From the sequence record OP114733: 64,000 bases of DNA; one strand, written 5' to 3'. The notes beneath the pieces were generated by a model that saw nothing but the letters and a program-made list of their open reading frames with translations, did no database searches and was not told the DNA's origin. The position numbers and the translations under genes were made by a program. Source of the DNA: Escherichia phage vB_EcoM-pEB20. Shown one piece after another: positions 39,849 through 46,376 of this stretch. How positions within the stretch are numbered: the stretch's first letter is position 1; each line of letters begins with the position of its first letter.

Positions 39849-40484
39849 ATGAAAACTACTCCTATTACTATCGCTATTGACGCAATTATAAAACAAGCTT
39901 CTTCTTTGGCCGCTATGGCCAAAGTAATTAGTCAAAACCCTGCTCGTTATAATGCTATTCTAGAAACTCTTCGACGCCCTGGACTTAGTAATTATGAAAG
40001 CCGGGTAATTATTACAGGTGTTGGTAAGAATGCTAATATCGCAACTAAAGCTTCCGAGACTTTTGCTTCACTCGGTATCCCGAGTATGTACTTGAACACT
40101 GGGCATTATTCTCACGGTGATGCAGGATTCATTGCGCCTAATGATGTGTTGATTCATATTAGTCGTTCTGGTAAAACTGAAGAAATGATAGGCGTGGCTA
40201 AGCATCTTAAAATGATTCGTCCGAATGTCAAACAGATTCTGTTGCATTGTAACCCAGACATTCCACAAGAAAATGAAGCCCTTTTTGATTACTCTTTCTG
40301 TACAGGCATCGCGGTAGAGGTTGATGAGAATTCTCTGGCTCCGACTATGTCCACTACATTGTTGTTAGCGCTTATCGATACGTTTGCTATCAACCTTTCG
40401 TCTGAGCGTGGATTTACCTCTAATGACTTCCTTAAGTTCCATCCAGGCGGTGCACTAGGTGCCATGTTACGAGGCGAACAATGA
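39849..40484 (+). CDS. SIS-domain sugar-phosphate isomerase (KdsD/GutQ-like arabinose-5-phosphate isomerase core, no CBS domains)
   Basis: VIITGVGKNANIATK, HGDAGF, LAPTMSTT, FHPGGALGAML match KdsD SIS domain pattern. Confidence 0.7.
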   Translation: MKTTPITIAIDAIIKQASSLAAMAKVISQNPARYNAILETLRRPGLSNYESRVIITGVGKNANIATKASETFASLGIPSMYLNTGHYSHGDAGFIAPNDVLIHISRSGKTEEMIGVAKHLKMIRPNVKQILLHCNPDIPQENEALFDYSFCTGIAVEVDENSLAPTMSTTLLLALIDTFAINLSSERGFTSNDFLKFHPGGALGAMLRGEQ

Positions 40485-40624
40485 AAGCAATAACAATAGG
40501 ACTTTTACTATTGATGCTTGTCATGACTATCTACTGGAGCTTAACGGCTCCAGTAATGATTCCAACACTTGTAATTGGATGGATTATGATTGGACTACAA
40601 GCAAAGTATGAATGCTTTAACTAG
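40481..40624 (+). CDS. 47-aa two-TM membrane peptide (below ORF-track cutoff)
   Basis: ATGA overlap with SIS gene stop. Confidence 0.35.
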   Translation: MKAITIGLLLLMLVMTIYWSLTAPVMIPTLVIGWIMIGLQAKYECFN

Positions 40625-40665
40625 AATAGTGTACAATACTCCTACTTACCAATGAGGACTTCAAC

Positions 40666-42351
40666 ATGAAAAAAGCTGTTATTCTTGGTGCTGGACTGGC
40701 AACTCGTTTGTATCCAATAACGCACCATATTCCTAAGGTGCTTGTTAACTATAAACAAGACACTATTCTAAGCAATTTGTATACAATTTATTCTGACCTT
40801 GGCGCAGATGAAATTATTGTAGTAGTTCATTCAAAATTTGCTGAAACTGTTCGAGCTTATTGTGAGCAAGAAGGGTTCAATGTGACTATTCGTACAGTTG
40901 ATGAAGCGTATGGTTCTGCTTATGCTCTTGCTAAATTACACAAAGATTTAGACGGCCATAATGTAATTGTTAACTGGTGTGATATTATTCCTGATTTTGG
41001 TTCATGGTCTTGGAATGTTAACGCAATCTATGTTAAGGGTGACGAATGTCGATATAATTTCGACGGTGAAAATATCACTAACGTAGGTTCAACAGGTGGT
41101 AATGTTGTAGGAATTTATCAGTTCAAAGACTGGGAATTCTATATGGGTTCTACTGATGAGGAAATTCATGAATACTGCAAAGGACGTGATTTCGTAGAAT
41201 TCCTTTACGGCAGCGCATTCAATAAATCAGAGCTTATGAATCTAATTGATTTAGGTGATATGCCTAAACTTGAAAAAGCTCATGAAGTTCGTGAACTTAA
41301 TCGTAGTTTTAATGCAGTTGAAATTGGTGAAGAAACTGTAACTAAATTCGCATTAACCGAACAGGGTCGAGCTCTTCAGAAAGATGAGATTTCATGGTAT
41401 CTTAAAGTGAAATCAGATTCAGTTCCTCAGTTAGTTTCGGTAAATGAAAATAATTTTGAAATGGAACGTATTAAAGGTAAGCCGGCATTTGAATATATTA
41501 AATCCAAATCAAGTCTTGCTCGTCCACAAATTGTTGATGCAATTTTAGATGCACTGAAATTCAGCACAGACACTTATTTTGTAAGTCCTGAAACTGTTCG
41601 TCGTGATTTCACTAAAGAGTTCTATACGAAAGTTATTGATCGTTGTGAAAGCATTCAACCATTGATTGATTCATTTGGTAAAATCACACATGTGAACTAC
41701 ACTAAGATTGGACGTCTGAAGCCAATGCTGAAACAAGCTTTAGAACACCTTATTCGTTATCATAACCGTTCTCAGGGACAGTACTCTGTTATTCATGGTG
41801 ACCCGAACTTCAGTAATACTATGATTACTGATAACGGCGAAGTCAAGTTTATAGACCCTCGTGGATATTTTGGCGAAACCAAGATTTATGGGCCAAAATT
41901 GTATGATGAAGCTAAAGTGCTTTATGCTGTTTCAGGATATGATGAATTCAATGCTAATCCGACCTGGGGACAGTTTACTATTGATGAAACAACTTGTAAT
42001 GTGACTATTAACATCAATCCATTAGTTTACAAATATGGAAAGATGAGTTCGTTTAACGAGTATCATCATTTGGCTGTAGCAATTATCTGGATTGCATTAG
42101 GTGGTTATTTCAAGAATAATCCACTTAAAGCGGTAGCCGCATATTATAAAGGTATGGAACTTCTGACTAAGCAATTACGTAACATGGGCCGTGTACTTCA
42201 GGACGGCTCTATTAGTTATGACGTAGCAGAACCTGTAACGGCTACTCTGATTACAAAAAATCCTGGTAAATGGGTACTAACTGATAAAGAAACCGGTGTT
42301 TCCTATCGTCCAATCGGTGGCGATATCACTCATCAATGGGAACGAATTTAA
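40666..42351 (+). CDS. bifunctional sugar-1-phosphate nucleotidyltransferase (N) / sugar kinase of APH-ChoK fold (C)
   Basis: N-terminal GAGLATRLYPIT (RmlA-like); C-terminal HGDPNFSN...IDPRG (Brenner motif plus metal-binding Asp). Confidence 0.7.
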   Translation: MKKAVILGAGLATRLYPITHHIPKVLVNYKQDTILSNLYTIYSDLGADEIIVVVHSKFAETVRAYCEQEGFNVTIRTVDEAYGSAYALAKLHKDLDGHNVIVNWCDIIPDFGSWSWNVNAIYVKGDECRYNFDGENITNVGSTGGNVVGIYQFKDWEFYMGSTDEEIHEYCKGRDFVEFLYGSAFNKSELMNLIDLGDMPKLEKAHEVRELNRSFNAVEIGEETVTKFALTEQGRALQKDEISWYLKVKSDSVPQLVSVNENNFEMERIKGKPAFEYIKSKSSLARPQIVDAILDALKFSTDTYFVSPETVRRDFTKEFYTKVIDRCESIQPLIDSFGKITHVNYTKIGRLKPMLKQALEHLIRYHNRSQGQYSVIHGDPNFSNTMITDNGEVKFIDPRGYFGETKIYGPKLYDEAKVLYAVSGYDEFNANPTWGQFTIDETTCNVTININPLVYKYGKMSSFNEYHHLAVAIIWIALGGYFKNNPLKAVAAYYKGMELLTKQLRNMGRVLQDGSISYDVAEPVTATLITKNPGKWVLTDKETGVSYRPIGGDITHQWERI

Positions 42352-42716
42352 TGCAACTATGCTTCGATGTCGATGATTGTATAACCGAATGGAATAACAA
42401 TCGTGATTACGCTAATTTTAAACCGGACCTAGAAATGGTGGCAGCCATTAATGCCTTGTATGACGCAGGGCATACCATCACGCTTTACACTGCTCGTGGT
42501 ATGAAGTCTGTAGGTCCTGGACGTATTGCTGTAGATATCCTACCAGGTCTGTTACAGAACTTAGCTAACATTGGTTTGAAGTATCATAATTTGCTAACAC
42601 ATAAACCAGTATATGATTGGATTATCGACGACAAAGCTATGCGTCCTGACGAATTCAAAGCTCTTATGAATAAAGGCGAATTCGAAACATTTAAATCATA
42701 TAAACCAAATCTATAA
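42351..42716 (+). CDS. small HAD-superfamily phosphatase
   Basis: N-terminal FDVDDCIT (DxD motif I), ITLYTARG, WIIDDKAM; TAATG coupling to upstream gene. Confidence 0.6.
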   Translation: MQLCFDVDDCITEWNNNRDYANFKPDLEMVAAINALYDAGHTITLYTARGMKSVGPGRIAVDILPGLLQNLANIGLKYHNLLTHKPVYDWIIDDKAMRPDEFKALMNKGEFETFKSYKPNL

Positions 42717-42762
42717 TAATTTAAGTAAGACCTGCAAAAACCGTCGCATCAATTAACGCGAG

Positions 42763-43932
42763 ATGCAAAAAATGAATACTTTTAAAATTGGAACGAATTT
42801 CGATTTAGCTCTTCTTGATAAAATCGTAGAGCTCAATAAAACTTATCCTAATAGCTTGATAAATGAAGTATACGGCTCTACAAGAGAAATGGCTTTTGTA
42901 GCAGCCAGACCTGATTTTAGGCTTCCTGACGTTGACAAAAAGATGTTAGAAGACTACGTTAAACGTTGTAACGAATTAGGTATTTGCTTTAACTATACAC
43001 TCAACACGATAAATCCTGGTTCAAAAAGAGAACTAGTTGAGTGGAAGAAGAAAGCTATTCAGGATTATGTTCAGTATCTTTGGTCAATAGGCGTATGGCG
43101 TATTACTATCGCTAACCCTGTTGTTATGGAAATTGTTCGTGAAGTCAATAAAGACATTGAGATTGAAGTTTCAACAATTCTACATGTCGATGCTGTAACT
43201 CAAATCAAATACTTGCATGACCAGTATAATATCAAAAAGGTCTGCTGTGGAATTCATAAGAACCGTTCAGTTTCTTTCCTGAAGCGTGCAGCAGAGTTTT
43301 GCAATAAGAACAATATAATATTTGAAGTTCTTGTAAATGAGTTCTGTTCTAATGCTGGTAAAGGGTATACAACACATTGTAGCTATCGTGACTCTTGCTA
43401 TATTTTCCATAGTACTGATGTTACAGCTGATGATGCTAAATCCTTAAACGGATATCCTATGCAGCACTGTATTAAAGCTCGTGATACAGACCCATTTAAC
43501 TGGTTGAGAACTCGTTTTGTTCGTCCTCAAGATTTGAAACTTTATAATGATATTGGTATCACTCAATTTAAAGTTTCAGGACGTACAGGTAGCACAGACT
43601 ACATTTTGAAAGTTCTTGAAGCATACGCTTCTGAAAAGTTTGAAGGTAATTTGTTAGAACTGTGGAAGCCTTTAGAGACTATTTTCACTCTTGAAAACGA
43701 AACTGAGTTTTCACATACGGTAAATATTGAAACCTCTTTGTTAGACGGCTTTTTAGAAAAAAGGTGGTTCAGACATCCAGATTTCGATTGTGCTAATGAA
43801 ATCTGCGGGACGACGTGTACATATTGTGAAAGATATTATAAACGTCAGTTATCTAAAAATGGGTTATCAGAAAACTCTATATCTATTATTGATATAACTA
43901 ACTCTGATGACGCTTTGAGGTACCCGGAATGA
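42763..43932 (+). CDS. Cys-rich enzyme of unknown function (C-terminal CX4CX3CX2C); candidate Fe-S protein or transferase
   Basis: ORF track; CANEICGTTCTYC near C-terminus. Confidence 0.55.
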   Translation: MQKMNTFKIGTNFDLALLDKIVELNKTYPNSLINEVYGSTREMAFVAARPDFRLPDVDKKMLEDYVKRCNELGICFNYTLNTINPGSKRELVEWKKKAIQDYVQYLWSIGVWRITIANPVVMEIVREVNKDIEIEVSTILHVDAVTQIKYLHDQYNIKKVCCGIHKNRSVSFLKRAAEFCNKNNIIFEVLVNEFCSNAGKGYTTHCSYRDSCYIFHSTDVTADDAKSLNGYPMQHCIKARDTDPFNWLRTRFVRPQDLKLYNDIGITQFKVSGRTGSTDYILKVLEAYASEKFEGNLLELWKPLETIFTLENETEFSHTVNIETSLLDGFLEKRWFRHPDFDCANEICGTTCTYCERYYKRQLSKNGLSENSISIIDITNSDDALRYPE

Positions 43933-44168
43933 TTTCTAGAAAAACTTTTAACCACCAACTTAATGAAGAGATTTTGACTATAAAACTGAACACTAACGAA
44001 CAAATTCTTAAAAAGGCCCTGATGGGCCTGTTTGAAACTAAAGCGGCTAAAGTGATTAAAGAACCTGTTCAATTGGAATACTACGCTGATGCATTTCTTC
44101 ATAGTGTTCTTGGAAGTATCGATGCTGAAGCTTTACGTTATATCAACATTGTCAAGAAATTCAAATAA
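43929..44168 (+). CDS. hypothetical protein
   Basis: ORF track. Confidence 0.5.
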   Translation: MISRKTFNHQLNEEILTIKLNTNEQILKKALMGLFETKAAKVIKEPVQLEYYADAFLHSVLGSIDAEALRYINIVKKFK

Positions 44169-44210: not shown

Positions 44211-44927
44211 ATGGGAAAACATAACACAATGAAATATATCAAAGCCGCAGATTTTCAAACCGCATTTAAAGCAGTCAATCGTGAAATTTTAGAAAACCCG
44301 GAATTCGTAACTGATTCTCGTATTGGACGTTGTAATGAAATTGGGTCTATGACAGTAGTTGTTGACACTCCATCATCATTCAAAATGACCGACCCACGTA
44401 TTAACCGCATCTCTTATGAATATGCCGAAGACTTCTGGAAGTTTATGATTTCTGGTGGTACCAACGCAGAAGAAGCGTTTAAGGCATATCCTAATGTCGC
44501 TAAATTTATTTCTAAACCAAAATCAGATGTTTTGCCGGCGAACTTCAACACTTTCTATGGTCCTCGCATTGCGGCCCAATTACCAGCTCTTCTAAAAGAA
44601 CTTAAAGAGAAGCCTAACTCTCGAAGAGTTGTGTTCCAAATTCTAGAAAGTTCTGATCAGGCTTTGCTTGATTCAGACGAAACGCTTGAATATCCATGTA
44701 CTGACTCAGTGACTTATTATATTCGTGATGGTAAGCTTTATACCCACTGTCATATGCGTTCTCAGAACTGTGCTGTTGTTATGCAGTTGGATTTTTATCT
44801 CCAAGGAAAATTACTTCATTATATCGCTAACGAATGCGGTGTAGAAGTTGGTGATTATACTCATACCATGGTAAGTGCCCATGTGTTTGAACGTGATTTT
44901 GATTATGTTAAAGGATTCCTTGACTAA
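44211..44927 (+). CDS. 42: thymidylate-synthase-fold pyrimidine hydroxymethylase (gp42-like dCMP hydroxymethylase)
   Basis: NSRR..PCTDSVTYYIRDGKL..HMRSQN pattern parallels T4 gp42 active-site region as recalled; position between 43 and uvsX. Confidence 0.6.
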   Translation: MGKHNTMKYIKAADFQTAFKAVNREILENPEFVTDSRIGRCNEIGSMTVVVDTPSSFKMTDPRINRISYEYAEDFWKFMISGGTNAEEAFKAYPNVAKFISKPKSDVLPANFNTFYGPRIAAQLPALLKELKEKPNSRRVVFQILESSDQALLDSDETLEYPCTDSVTYYIRDGKLYTHCHMRSQNCAVVMQLDFYLQGKLLHYIANECGVEVGDYTHTMVSAHVFERDFDYVKGFLD

Positions 44928-45827: not shown

Positions 45828-46376
45828 ATGGCTAAAATTATTTTAGTAGATGGCCCGGATAATGCTGGTAAAACAACTTTCATTAATGACATAATGGAAA
45901 TTAGTGAAAGATATGTAAAGATTGATTTCCCTAAACGAACAGTTGATGGGCGTTTCGATGTTAAGTCTCGAAATGAAGTTGGCTGTTTCGAAACGATGTT
46001 GAATTATTTAGACCCTACTAAGATTTATCTGTTAGACCGTGGATATATTAGTAACTGGGTTTATGGACGTATTCGACAAGATGCGGACTCGATTCTTGAC
46101 GTTTATGAACAGGACTATGTTCGTCTTTGCCAAAACCATGATGTGTTCACAATTATTTTAACACGTAACGAAATGACTGAAAGTTTTGAAGACGACCTTA
46201 TTACTTTGTCTTCACTCAGTTTCAATACAGTCATTTCACATTTTGAAGAGTTTGCAATTCATAACAAAATCCAAACGTATCAATTACTTAATCATGATGG
46301 TGCTAACAAAGTTATAGGATTTAATGCAAGCGAACGTAATTATTTGATTACAGAAATTATCAAATGGGCTCGTTAA
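45828..46376 (+). CDS. P-loop (deoxy)nucleotide/nucleoside kinase-like
   Basis: Walker A GPDNAGKTT; LLDRGYISNWVYG resembles dNK/TMPK DR motif. Confidence 0.6.
   Translation: MAKIILVDGPDNAGKTTFINDIMEISERYVKIDFPKRTVDGRFDVKSRNEVGCFETMLNYLDPTKIYLLDRGYISNWVYGRIRQDADSILDVYEQDYVRLCQNHDVFTIILTRNEMTESFEDDLITLSSLSFNTVISHFEEFAIHNKIQTYQLLNHDGANKVIGFNASERNYLITEIIKWAR

Follow-up and report, generated by a model that had tools for sequence, protein, structure and literature searches.

The gene studied here lies at positions 42763-43932, on the plus strand, of a 64,000-nucleotide stretch of the DNA of Escherichia phage vB_EcoM-pEB20 (record OP114733); this whole stretch is called the window. The open reading frame (ORF) begins with ATG and encodes a protein of 389 amino acids (aa), as described in the original prediction; the protein has 13 cysteines, and the strand opposite to it is closed by many stop codons. 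ATG 42772, which would give a protein of 386 aa, is likely to be the true start, considering that the consensus of the homologs begins at M4 and that a GAG is found 9 nt upstream of this codon. The gene is the ortholog of RB69 gp50 (RB69p050, NP_861740.1) and the window is that of an RB69-like Mosigvirus, with a 6.6-kb region showing 97-98% identity to RB69 and about 150 relatives. The gene belongs to the U32 family, and it is referred to as U32 below. The gene and its parts are:

42763..43932, plus strand: U32-family gene, 389 aa, ATG start
43051..43629, plus strand: Peptidase_U32 (PF01136) core, residues 97-289, TIM-barrel-like fold (Pfam, hhalign, Foldseek)
43345..43470, plus strand: site A, putative [4Fe-4S] ligands C195, C206, C212 and C236 (conservation; hhalign to RlhA)
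43789..43827, plus strand: site B, the C-terminal CX4CX3CX2C cluster of C343, C348, C352 and C355, a putative second metal or iron-sulfur (Fe-S) site

The product had been described as an enzyme of unknown class, which no longer holds. Pfam Peptidase_U32 was matched with 42.2 bits (gathering score 22.4) over residues 97-289, PHROG 5757 was matched over the full length, and many GenBank records already carry the label "peptidase U32" for this gene; the membership is also found in Table 1 of PMC13326640. The AlphaFold2 model, built with 51 homologs, reached a pLDDT of 92.3 and a pTM of 0.91. Its top PDB match in Foldseek was 5D88 (E 3e-7, TM 0.72 over the target), which is Mk0906 of Methanopyrus kandleri, the only solved U32 domain, and the other matches were generic TIM barrels. 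Mk0906 is the closest solved structure but shares 11% identity, has 247 residues and lacks the C-terminal cysteine domain. When the family profile was aligned by hhalign with the four U32 paralogs of E. coli, the best match was RlhA (YdcP, the 5-hydroxycytidine synthase of 23S rRNA C2501), over residues 46-258 and 205 columns, with a probability of 84% and an E value of 8e-6; the identity is about 22%, and E193, C206 and C212 of the target align with E161, C169 and C176 of RlhA. With UbiV nothing was found by hhalign, and the UbiU NCBIfam equivalog gave 18.4 bits against a cutoff of 440. The protein has no Pfam match to DUF3656 or to the U32 C-terminal RNA-binding domain, its length being 389 aa as compared with about 650 aa in the RlhA subfamily. 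A sequence search of the PDB with the family profile returned only a spurious match to BIM1, and a search of the viral folds of BFVD with the model added nothing. The profile and fold comparison that had been proposed as a check thus led to the U32 family, and neither a structural nor a housekeeping protein came up as a homolog. By these matches the protein falls outside the RlhA, TrhP and UbiU/V subfamilies and defines one of its own, with at least 476 clusters (50% identity) at E <= 1e-30, most of them of 340-390 aa.

The cysteine content is 3.3%, as compared with a mean of 1.3% for the plus strand ORFs of at least 100 aa (fourth highest of 78). The C-terminal motif, to which the original prediction had drawn attention as a possible Fe-S or zinc site, is CANEICGTTCTYC at residues 343-355 (nt 43789-43827). 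Four cysteines within 13 residues appeared in 4.6% of the shuffles of the protein, and by itself the motif stands out only slightly; its weight comes from its conservation. Ten cysteines never vary among the 51 homologs (47-87% identity). A deeper set of 111 representatives, with identities of 23-49%, retains two four-ligand sites. In site A, C195 is conserved in 98%, C206 and C236 in 100%, and position 212 is Cys in 65% and His in 34%; in site B each of C343, C348, C352 and C355 is conserved in 96-98%, while C161 and C180 are not part of the conserved core. The alternation of Cys and His at the otherwise fixed position 212 is the behavior of a metal ligand. Taking into account this swap and the two conserved sites, the binding of a metal or an Fe-S cluster, which had been raised as a possibility, is very plausible. 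E193 is 79% conserved, and the pair E193-F194 preceding site A aligns with E161-F162 of RlhA. The spacing of site A is C-X10-C-X5-C/H-X23-C, compared with the canonical CX6CX15CX3C; the spacing of UbiU is also variable. Site B has its analog in Cys580 and Cys611 near the C-terminus of RlhA, both of which are essential. A radical-SAM assignment was also considered, as the string CX3CX2C fits C348-X3-C352-X-Y-C355, and it was rejected: a fourth conserved cysteine, C343, precedes the string, which itself lies C-terminal to the barrel, and Pfam gave no Radical_SAM match.

The characterised U32 proteins (RlhA, TrhP, UbiU/V) are Fe-S proteins needed for O2-independent, prephenate-dependent hydroxylations (PMC5727448, PMC6599085, PMC10990095), which does not fit the transferase suggested before as one possible role. 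RlhA requires prephenate synthesis and Fe-S biogenesis; its Cys169, Cys176 and two C-terminal cysteines are essential for 5-hydroxycytidine (ho5C) and the E161A mutant is nearly dead (PMC5727448). Besides being of the same Pfam family and the best profile match, RlhA has the chemistry that we propose here, hydroxylation at C5 of cytosine, and cysteines of the U32 motif plus a C-terminal cysteine cluster, essential in RlhA and conserved in the phage protein. It differs in its 653 aa with DUF3656 and in its substrate, a ribosome precursor, whereas the phage proteins have about 360-389 aa without DUF3656.

As for the genomic context, the U32 gene is integral to a DNA-modification cluster, in agreement with its earlier placement in a modification module. 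On the plus strand, the DNA polymerase gene (gp43) is followed by a KpsF-like isomerase, a 47-aa ORF, a nucleotidyltransferase/kinase, a HAD phosphatase and U32, and then by a 79-aa ORF, a homolog of thymidylate synthase (TS), a 299-aa phrog_3891 protein, a 182-aa kinase and UvsX. Translational adjacency to the HAD gene had been noted; the two genes are indeed adjacent, but they do not overlap, the HAD gene ending at 42716 and leaving a gap of 46 nt, and the real overlap (ATGA) is that of the U32 stop codon with the start of the 79-aa ORF at 43929. The neighbors are:

39849..42716, plus strand: UDP-arabinose branch (profile matches; pathway according to PMC13326640), made up of the next four genes
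39849-40484, plus strand: KpsF-like arabinose-5-phosphate (Ara5P) isomerase
40481-40624, plus strand: membrane ORF, 47 aa
40666-42351, plus strand: bifunctional nucleotidyltransferase/kinase, 561 aa
42336-42716, plus strand: HAD phosphatase
43929..44168, plus strand: 79-aa ORF, overlapping the U32 stop codon, in the slot of chorismate mutase (CM) in most other genera
44211..44927, plus strand: TS homolog (Pfam Thymidylat_synt), equivalent of RB69 gp48, function established by experiment in PMC13326640
44927..45826, plus strand: phrog_3891 protein, 299 aa, equivalent of RB69 gp46:47, predicted first arabinosyltransferase on 5-hydroxycytosine (5hoC) in DNA
45828..46376, plus strand: thymidylate-kinase-like nucleotide kinase, 182 aa, phrog_761, third member of a hydroxylase-glycosyltransferase-kinase trio

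The DNA of RB69 contains mono- and di-arabinosyl-5hoC and not arabinosyl-hydroxymethylcytosine (Lee et al., NAR 2026, PMC13326640). In that work gp48, the TS homolog, makes 5-hydroxy-dCMP with flavin and O2, with incorporation of 18O2, and the RB69 genes listed include a dCTPase. A complete route to UDP-arabinofuranose is described, formed by the isomerase, kinase/pyrophosphorylase and phosphatase, and the HY126 reconstitution by He et al. is cited for it there. In that description neither the sugar pathway nor the aerobic hydroxylation requires gp50, and the phages were always grown aerobically. RB69p050 appears only in Table 1, as "Sugar or heterocycle reductase" with structure matches to 5D88, and the text does not discuss it. 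The Acinetobacter phage DLP3 makes tri-arabinosyl-5hoC and has no U32 gene; its cluster has the gene order of the window, but nothing lies between the HAD and TS genes (PMC13326640). The U32 gene goes unmentioned in the 2018 RB69 paper, the Durham Collection paper, the Thanatos paper and a Tn-seq preprint.

An association that bears on prephenate was found in the Straboviridae. Every genus with a U32 gene was sampled, giving 12 lineages, and in 10 of these a CM gene is directly downstream of U32, often overlapping its stop codon. These are found in Kanagawavirus (KLB31, CIP9, PEi26), Winklervirus (Virsaitis27), Marfavirus F48, Mosugukvirus PM2, Gualtarvirus, Tegunavirus TG1, Bragavirus and Shewanella phage Thanatos-2. 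The matches to CM_2 range from 32.8 to 46.1 bits, the Pfam threshold being 27, and the phage proteins share invariant Arg, Arg, Lys, Glu, Ser and Gln residues. In Thanatos-2 the modification cluster is rearranged, yet U32 and CM remain together. By tblastn the CM was found in 51 phage records, all from U32-bearing genera, including LC53 and 92A1, which are experimentally studied phages.

U32 homologs at 40-58% identity also came from phages whose polymerase is of the DnaE type, the largest contig measuring 466 kb. A census was made of 39 such distant loci, IMG/VR contigs among them, covering 10 kb on either side of U32. In 28 of the 39 there is a homolog of the 299-aa phrog_3891 protein, translationally coupled to U32 and usually overlapping its start (54-103 bits; hhalign of the two family alignments, probability 99.7%, E 4e-27), and the phrog_761 kinase is also present in most of them. 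KpsF and the nucleotidyltransferase/kinase are found as well in 10 loci; many have U32, glycosyltransferase and kinase without either. An enzyme of the shikimate pathway is beside U32 in 13 of the 39: a standalone CM in 6, a fusion of DAHP synthase and CM in 5, and a DAHP synthase alone in 2 (for the one in L002 the call rests on 237 bits against 62 bits for KDO8P synthase). The fusions, in which a type I-beta DAHP synthase with a C-terminal CM adjoins U32, are on the IMG/VR contigs L049, L051, L052, L054 and L063; both Pfam domains were above threshold in the four complete copies, that of L051 being truncated. They would be auxiliary genes of the shikimate pathway.

The TS homolog is present in all 15 Straboviridae loci. 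Within 10 kb of U32, a TS-family gene is absent from 38 of the 39 distant loci and a homolog of the 5-hydroxy-dCMP (5hodCMP) synthase type from all 39; the single TS-family gene, at 5491-6357 of L040, resembles ThyA (138 bits) more than the 5hodCMP synthase. Considering that U32 is paired there with homologs of the 5hoC glycosyltransferase and the kinase and that no 5hodCMP-synthase-type homolog is nearby, U32 occupies, outside the Straboviridae, the hydroxylase position of the hydroxylase-glycosyltransferase-kinase trio.

The distribution among hosts was also compared. U32 was present in 221 phage records, the hosts of which are all Enterobacterales or Shewanella, that is, facultative anaerobes. 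The TS homolog was present in 345, of which 57 are phages of Acinetobacter, a strict aerobe, and U32 was found in no Acinetobacter phage record, including these 57.

By comparative genomics, we propose, with a probability of roughly 0.55, that the U32 gene encodes an Fe-S enzyme that hydroxylates C5 of cytosine without O2 and with prephenate as the donor, as the anaerobic counterpart of the TS homolog. The most likely substrate would be dCMP, converted to 5-hydroxy-dCMP; prephenate would give the oxygen, and the two cysteine sites would hold [4Fe-4S] clusters or electron-transfer centers. The 5-hydroxy-dCMP would then be phosphorylated by the kinase, incorporated by the polymerase and arabinosylated in the DNA by the phrog_3891 glycosyltransferase. 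In the Straboviridae this route would run in parallel with that of the O2-dependent TS-type enzyme, as is the case for TrhP/TrhO and for UbiU-V/UbiH-F-I. If so, a phage of facultative anaerobes could build arabinosyl-5-hydroxycytosine DNA in the anoxic gut; the Straboviridae concerned also encode an anaerobic ribonucleotide reductase. The family membership, the conserved ligand sites and the gene associations are observed here; Fe-S binding, the use of prephenate, the substrate and the anaerobic role are inferred.

In the formation of tRNA ho5U34, the prephenate-dependent anaerobic U32 enzyme TrhP and the unrelated O2-dependent TrhO give one product, which is what we suggest for U32 and the TS homolog; the substrate there is a tRNA uridine, the O2 partner is a rhodanese and not a flavin enzyme of TS fold, and the genes are unclustered. 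UbiU-UbiV, the O2-independent ubiquinone hydroxylases, are of the U32 family and act on a small molecule, as would the phage protein. They hold [4Fe-4S] on four cysteines of variable spacing, prephenate is their demonstrated oxygen donor and the CM domain of PheA rescues; however, they form a heterodimer with one cluster per subunit, while the phage protein has two cysteine sites in a single chain. The 5hodCMP synthases RB69 gp48 and DLP3 gp80 would share with U32 the product and the downstream kinase and 5hoC glycosyltransferase, and the gene is a neighbor, but their fold is unrelated, they use flavin and O2, and their role is experimentally proven whereas that of U32 is deduced.

Several observations weigh against this proposal. 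The similarity to RlhA is remote (22% identity), and of the four canonical U32 cysteines just two find a partner in the alignment, C192 and C196 of RlhA (the third and fourth of the motif) being unmatched in the phage protein. In vitro reconstitution has so far not been achieved for any U32 enzyme (PMC5727448, PMC6599085, PMC10990095). In Klebsiella phage Marfa the slot after U32 is empty, and in Mosigvirus, including the window, it is taken by the 79-aa ORF; neither has a CM there, and none was found elsewhere in the 64-kb window. These phages would have to draw on host prephenate (PheA/TyrA). The TS homologs of the distant genomes could be located more than 10 kb from U32. Dhakaviruses (e.g., IME08) and some Enterobacter and Serratia phages have the TS homolog without U32 although their hosts are facultative anaerobes, so that U32 is accessory, and the correlation with the oxygen requirement of the host is not clean and is confounded by phylogeny.

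Among other explanations, the enzyme could be a prephenate-dependent U32 hydroxylase acting on a polynucleotide, either cytosine in the phage DNA or a tRNA or rRNA of host or phage, and not on a mononucleotide. RlhA and TrhP are needed for the modification of RNA polymers, and RlhA is the closest E. coli paralog. However, the phage protein is compact, with about 360 aa like UbiU/V, and has neither DUF3656 nor the C-terminal RNA-binding domain. The genes that accompany U32 encode dNMP kinases, dCMP deaminase, dUTPase/DCD and a DNA glycosyltransferase rather than translation functions. Since dCTP is eliminated by T4-like phages, hydroxylation at the level of DNA would find no substrate. We consider this alternative unlikely.

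It is also conceivable that prephenate and Fe-S chemistry serve another reaction, such as a further modification made under particular conditions, or that the protein is a regulatory or accessory factor of the TS-type hydroxylase. That all Straboviridae loci examined contain both U32 and the TS homolog would agree with this, as would the fact that U32 chemistry is not established in vitro; but the distant phages carry U32 without a TS homolog within 10 kb, and in RB69 DNA, admittedly from aerobic growth only, nothing beyond mono- and di-arabinosyl-5hoC was found. The chance of this explanation seems small.

A redox enzyme of the sugar branch, modifying arabinose or a nucleotide-sugar precursor, would be in line with the only published label, the tentative one of Table 1 in PMC13326640, with the location of the gene between the HAD phosphatase and the base-modifying genes, and with the 10 distant loci in which KpsF and the nucleotidyltransferase/kinase co-occur with it. 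Nevertheless, the UDP-arabinofuranose route is described as complete without U32 (PMC13326640, on the citation of He et al.), which makes a tailoring role on the sugar, the other role suggested before, unlikely. DLP3 reaches tri-arabinosyl-5hoC without the gene, sugars are not known as substrates of any U32 member, many distant loci combine U32, the glycosyltransferase (GT1) and the kinase without KpsF or the nucleotidyltransferase/kinase, and the linkage to CM and DAHP synthase would be left unexplained. This explanation is very doubtful. A genuine peptidase or collagenase can practically be dismissed: the annotations use these names and some U32 proteins were historically reported as collagenolytic, but no catalytic mechanism of proteolysis is known in the family (PMC5727448), and the cysteine sites, the nucleotide-metabolism context and the linkage to CM and DAHP synthase have no proteolytic rationale.

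Returning to the anaerobic hydroxylation of dCMP, its extension to the whole subfamily is more tentative and in our estimation falls slightly short of an even chance. The members, at least 476 clusters mostly from uncultured phages and including jumbo phages of 190-470 kb, would be prephenate-using pyrimidine C5 hydroxylases for glycosylated 5-hydroxypyrimidine DNA made without O2; they would often be the only hydroxylase, and some phages would boost prephenate with a CM or DAHP synthase of their own. If the role proposed for the gene of the window is correct, prephenate-dependent hydroxylation by U32 enzymes would reach from RNA and quinones to DNA precursors, and this would be the first U32 enzyme of the prephenate-dependent type tied to DNA modification. 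It would also mean that phages rewire the shikimate pathway, through CM and DAHP synthase, for DNA hypermodification, and it would explain how gut phages with 5-hydroxycytosine replicate without O2, a gap left by the aerobic work of 2025-2026. Considering that the substrate would be a soluble mononucleotide, this U32 enzyme may be the first to allow reconstitution in vitro, which could settle the mechanism. The cassette of U32, glycosyltransferase and kinase can be used to search uncultured jumbo phages for glycosylated 5-hydroxypyrimidine DNA, with relevance to the evasion of restriction and CRISPR and to the choice of phages for therapy at anoxic sites. In the searchable literature we found no functional reading of the gene, linkage to CM or DAHP synthase, U32-without-TS phages or two-site cysteine architecture, an earlier mention being possible in 2025-2026 work outside the search; queries combining U32, chorismate mutase and phage, or prephenate and a phage DNA modification hydroxylase, gave nothing relevant.

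Some distant loci have further genes next to U32. A radical-SAM gene (plus SPASM) is just upstream of the glycosyltransferase-U32 pair in L021 (7980-9011), L022 (7972-9000) and L001 (1314-2249), and this recurring gene may stand for a further modification step. In L020 (11098-12000, 15073-16179) the genes after U32 encode a TAGT-like DNA glycosyltransferase and a dUTPase/DCD, with a UDP-galactopyranose mutase nearby, which points to another sugar, galactofuranose, on the hydroxylated base. A dCMP deaminase adjoins U32 in some huge phages (L001, 9447-10004; L003, 8279-8704; L065), so that the base there is possibly uracil, as 5-hydroxy-dU, and not cytosine.

The 79-aa ORF of the window was considered as a diverged CM of the AroQ type and this was rejected: it has no CM_2 match in Pfam at E up to 10, hhalign against the phage CM profile gave a probability of 0.07%, and the invariant Arg, Arg, Lys, Glu, Ser and Gln are absent. 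Its AlphaFold2 model (pLDDT 63) was uninformative. It is found only in Mosigvirus, where it is 81-97% identical; as it is more variable than U32 and the neighboring genes and has been shortened to 47-58 aa in many genomes, it could be an ORF in decay or a replacement.

A promoter-like sequence (TTTAAA, 16 nt, TATAAT; 10/12 matches) is located at 42690-42717 on the plus strand, at the end of the HAD gene and just upstream of U32; it is weak evidence, and in promoter and terminator scans of the region the site counts were at chance level. The 47-aa ORF at 40481-40624 is very hydrophobic (MKAITIGLLLLMLVMTIYW...) and overlaps the stop codon of KpsF; ORFs of about 46-48 aa are in the same position in KLB31 (annotated as transmembrane), PM2, TG1, PEi26 and Virsaitis27. 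A Seg-like homing endonuclease is found between the HAD gene and U32 in PEi26 and Virsaitis27 (L015, 3352-3990, and L006, 4352-4990), and a homing endonuclease is also inside the modification cluster of some Mosigvirus records. The nucleotidyltransferase/kinase and phrog_3891 genes, each split in the RB69 reference (ORF052c/053c; 046/047), are intact single ORFs in the window, in agreement with the published statement that the RB69 splits are sequencing errors.

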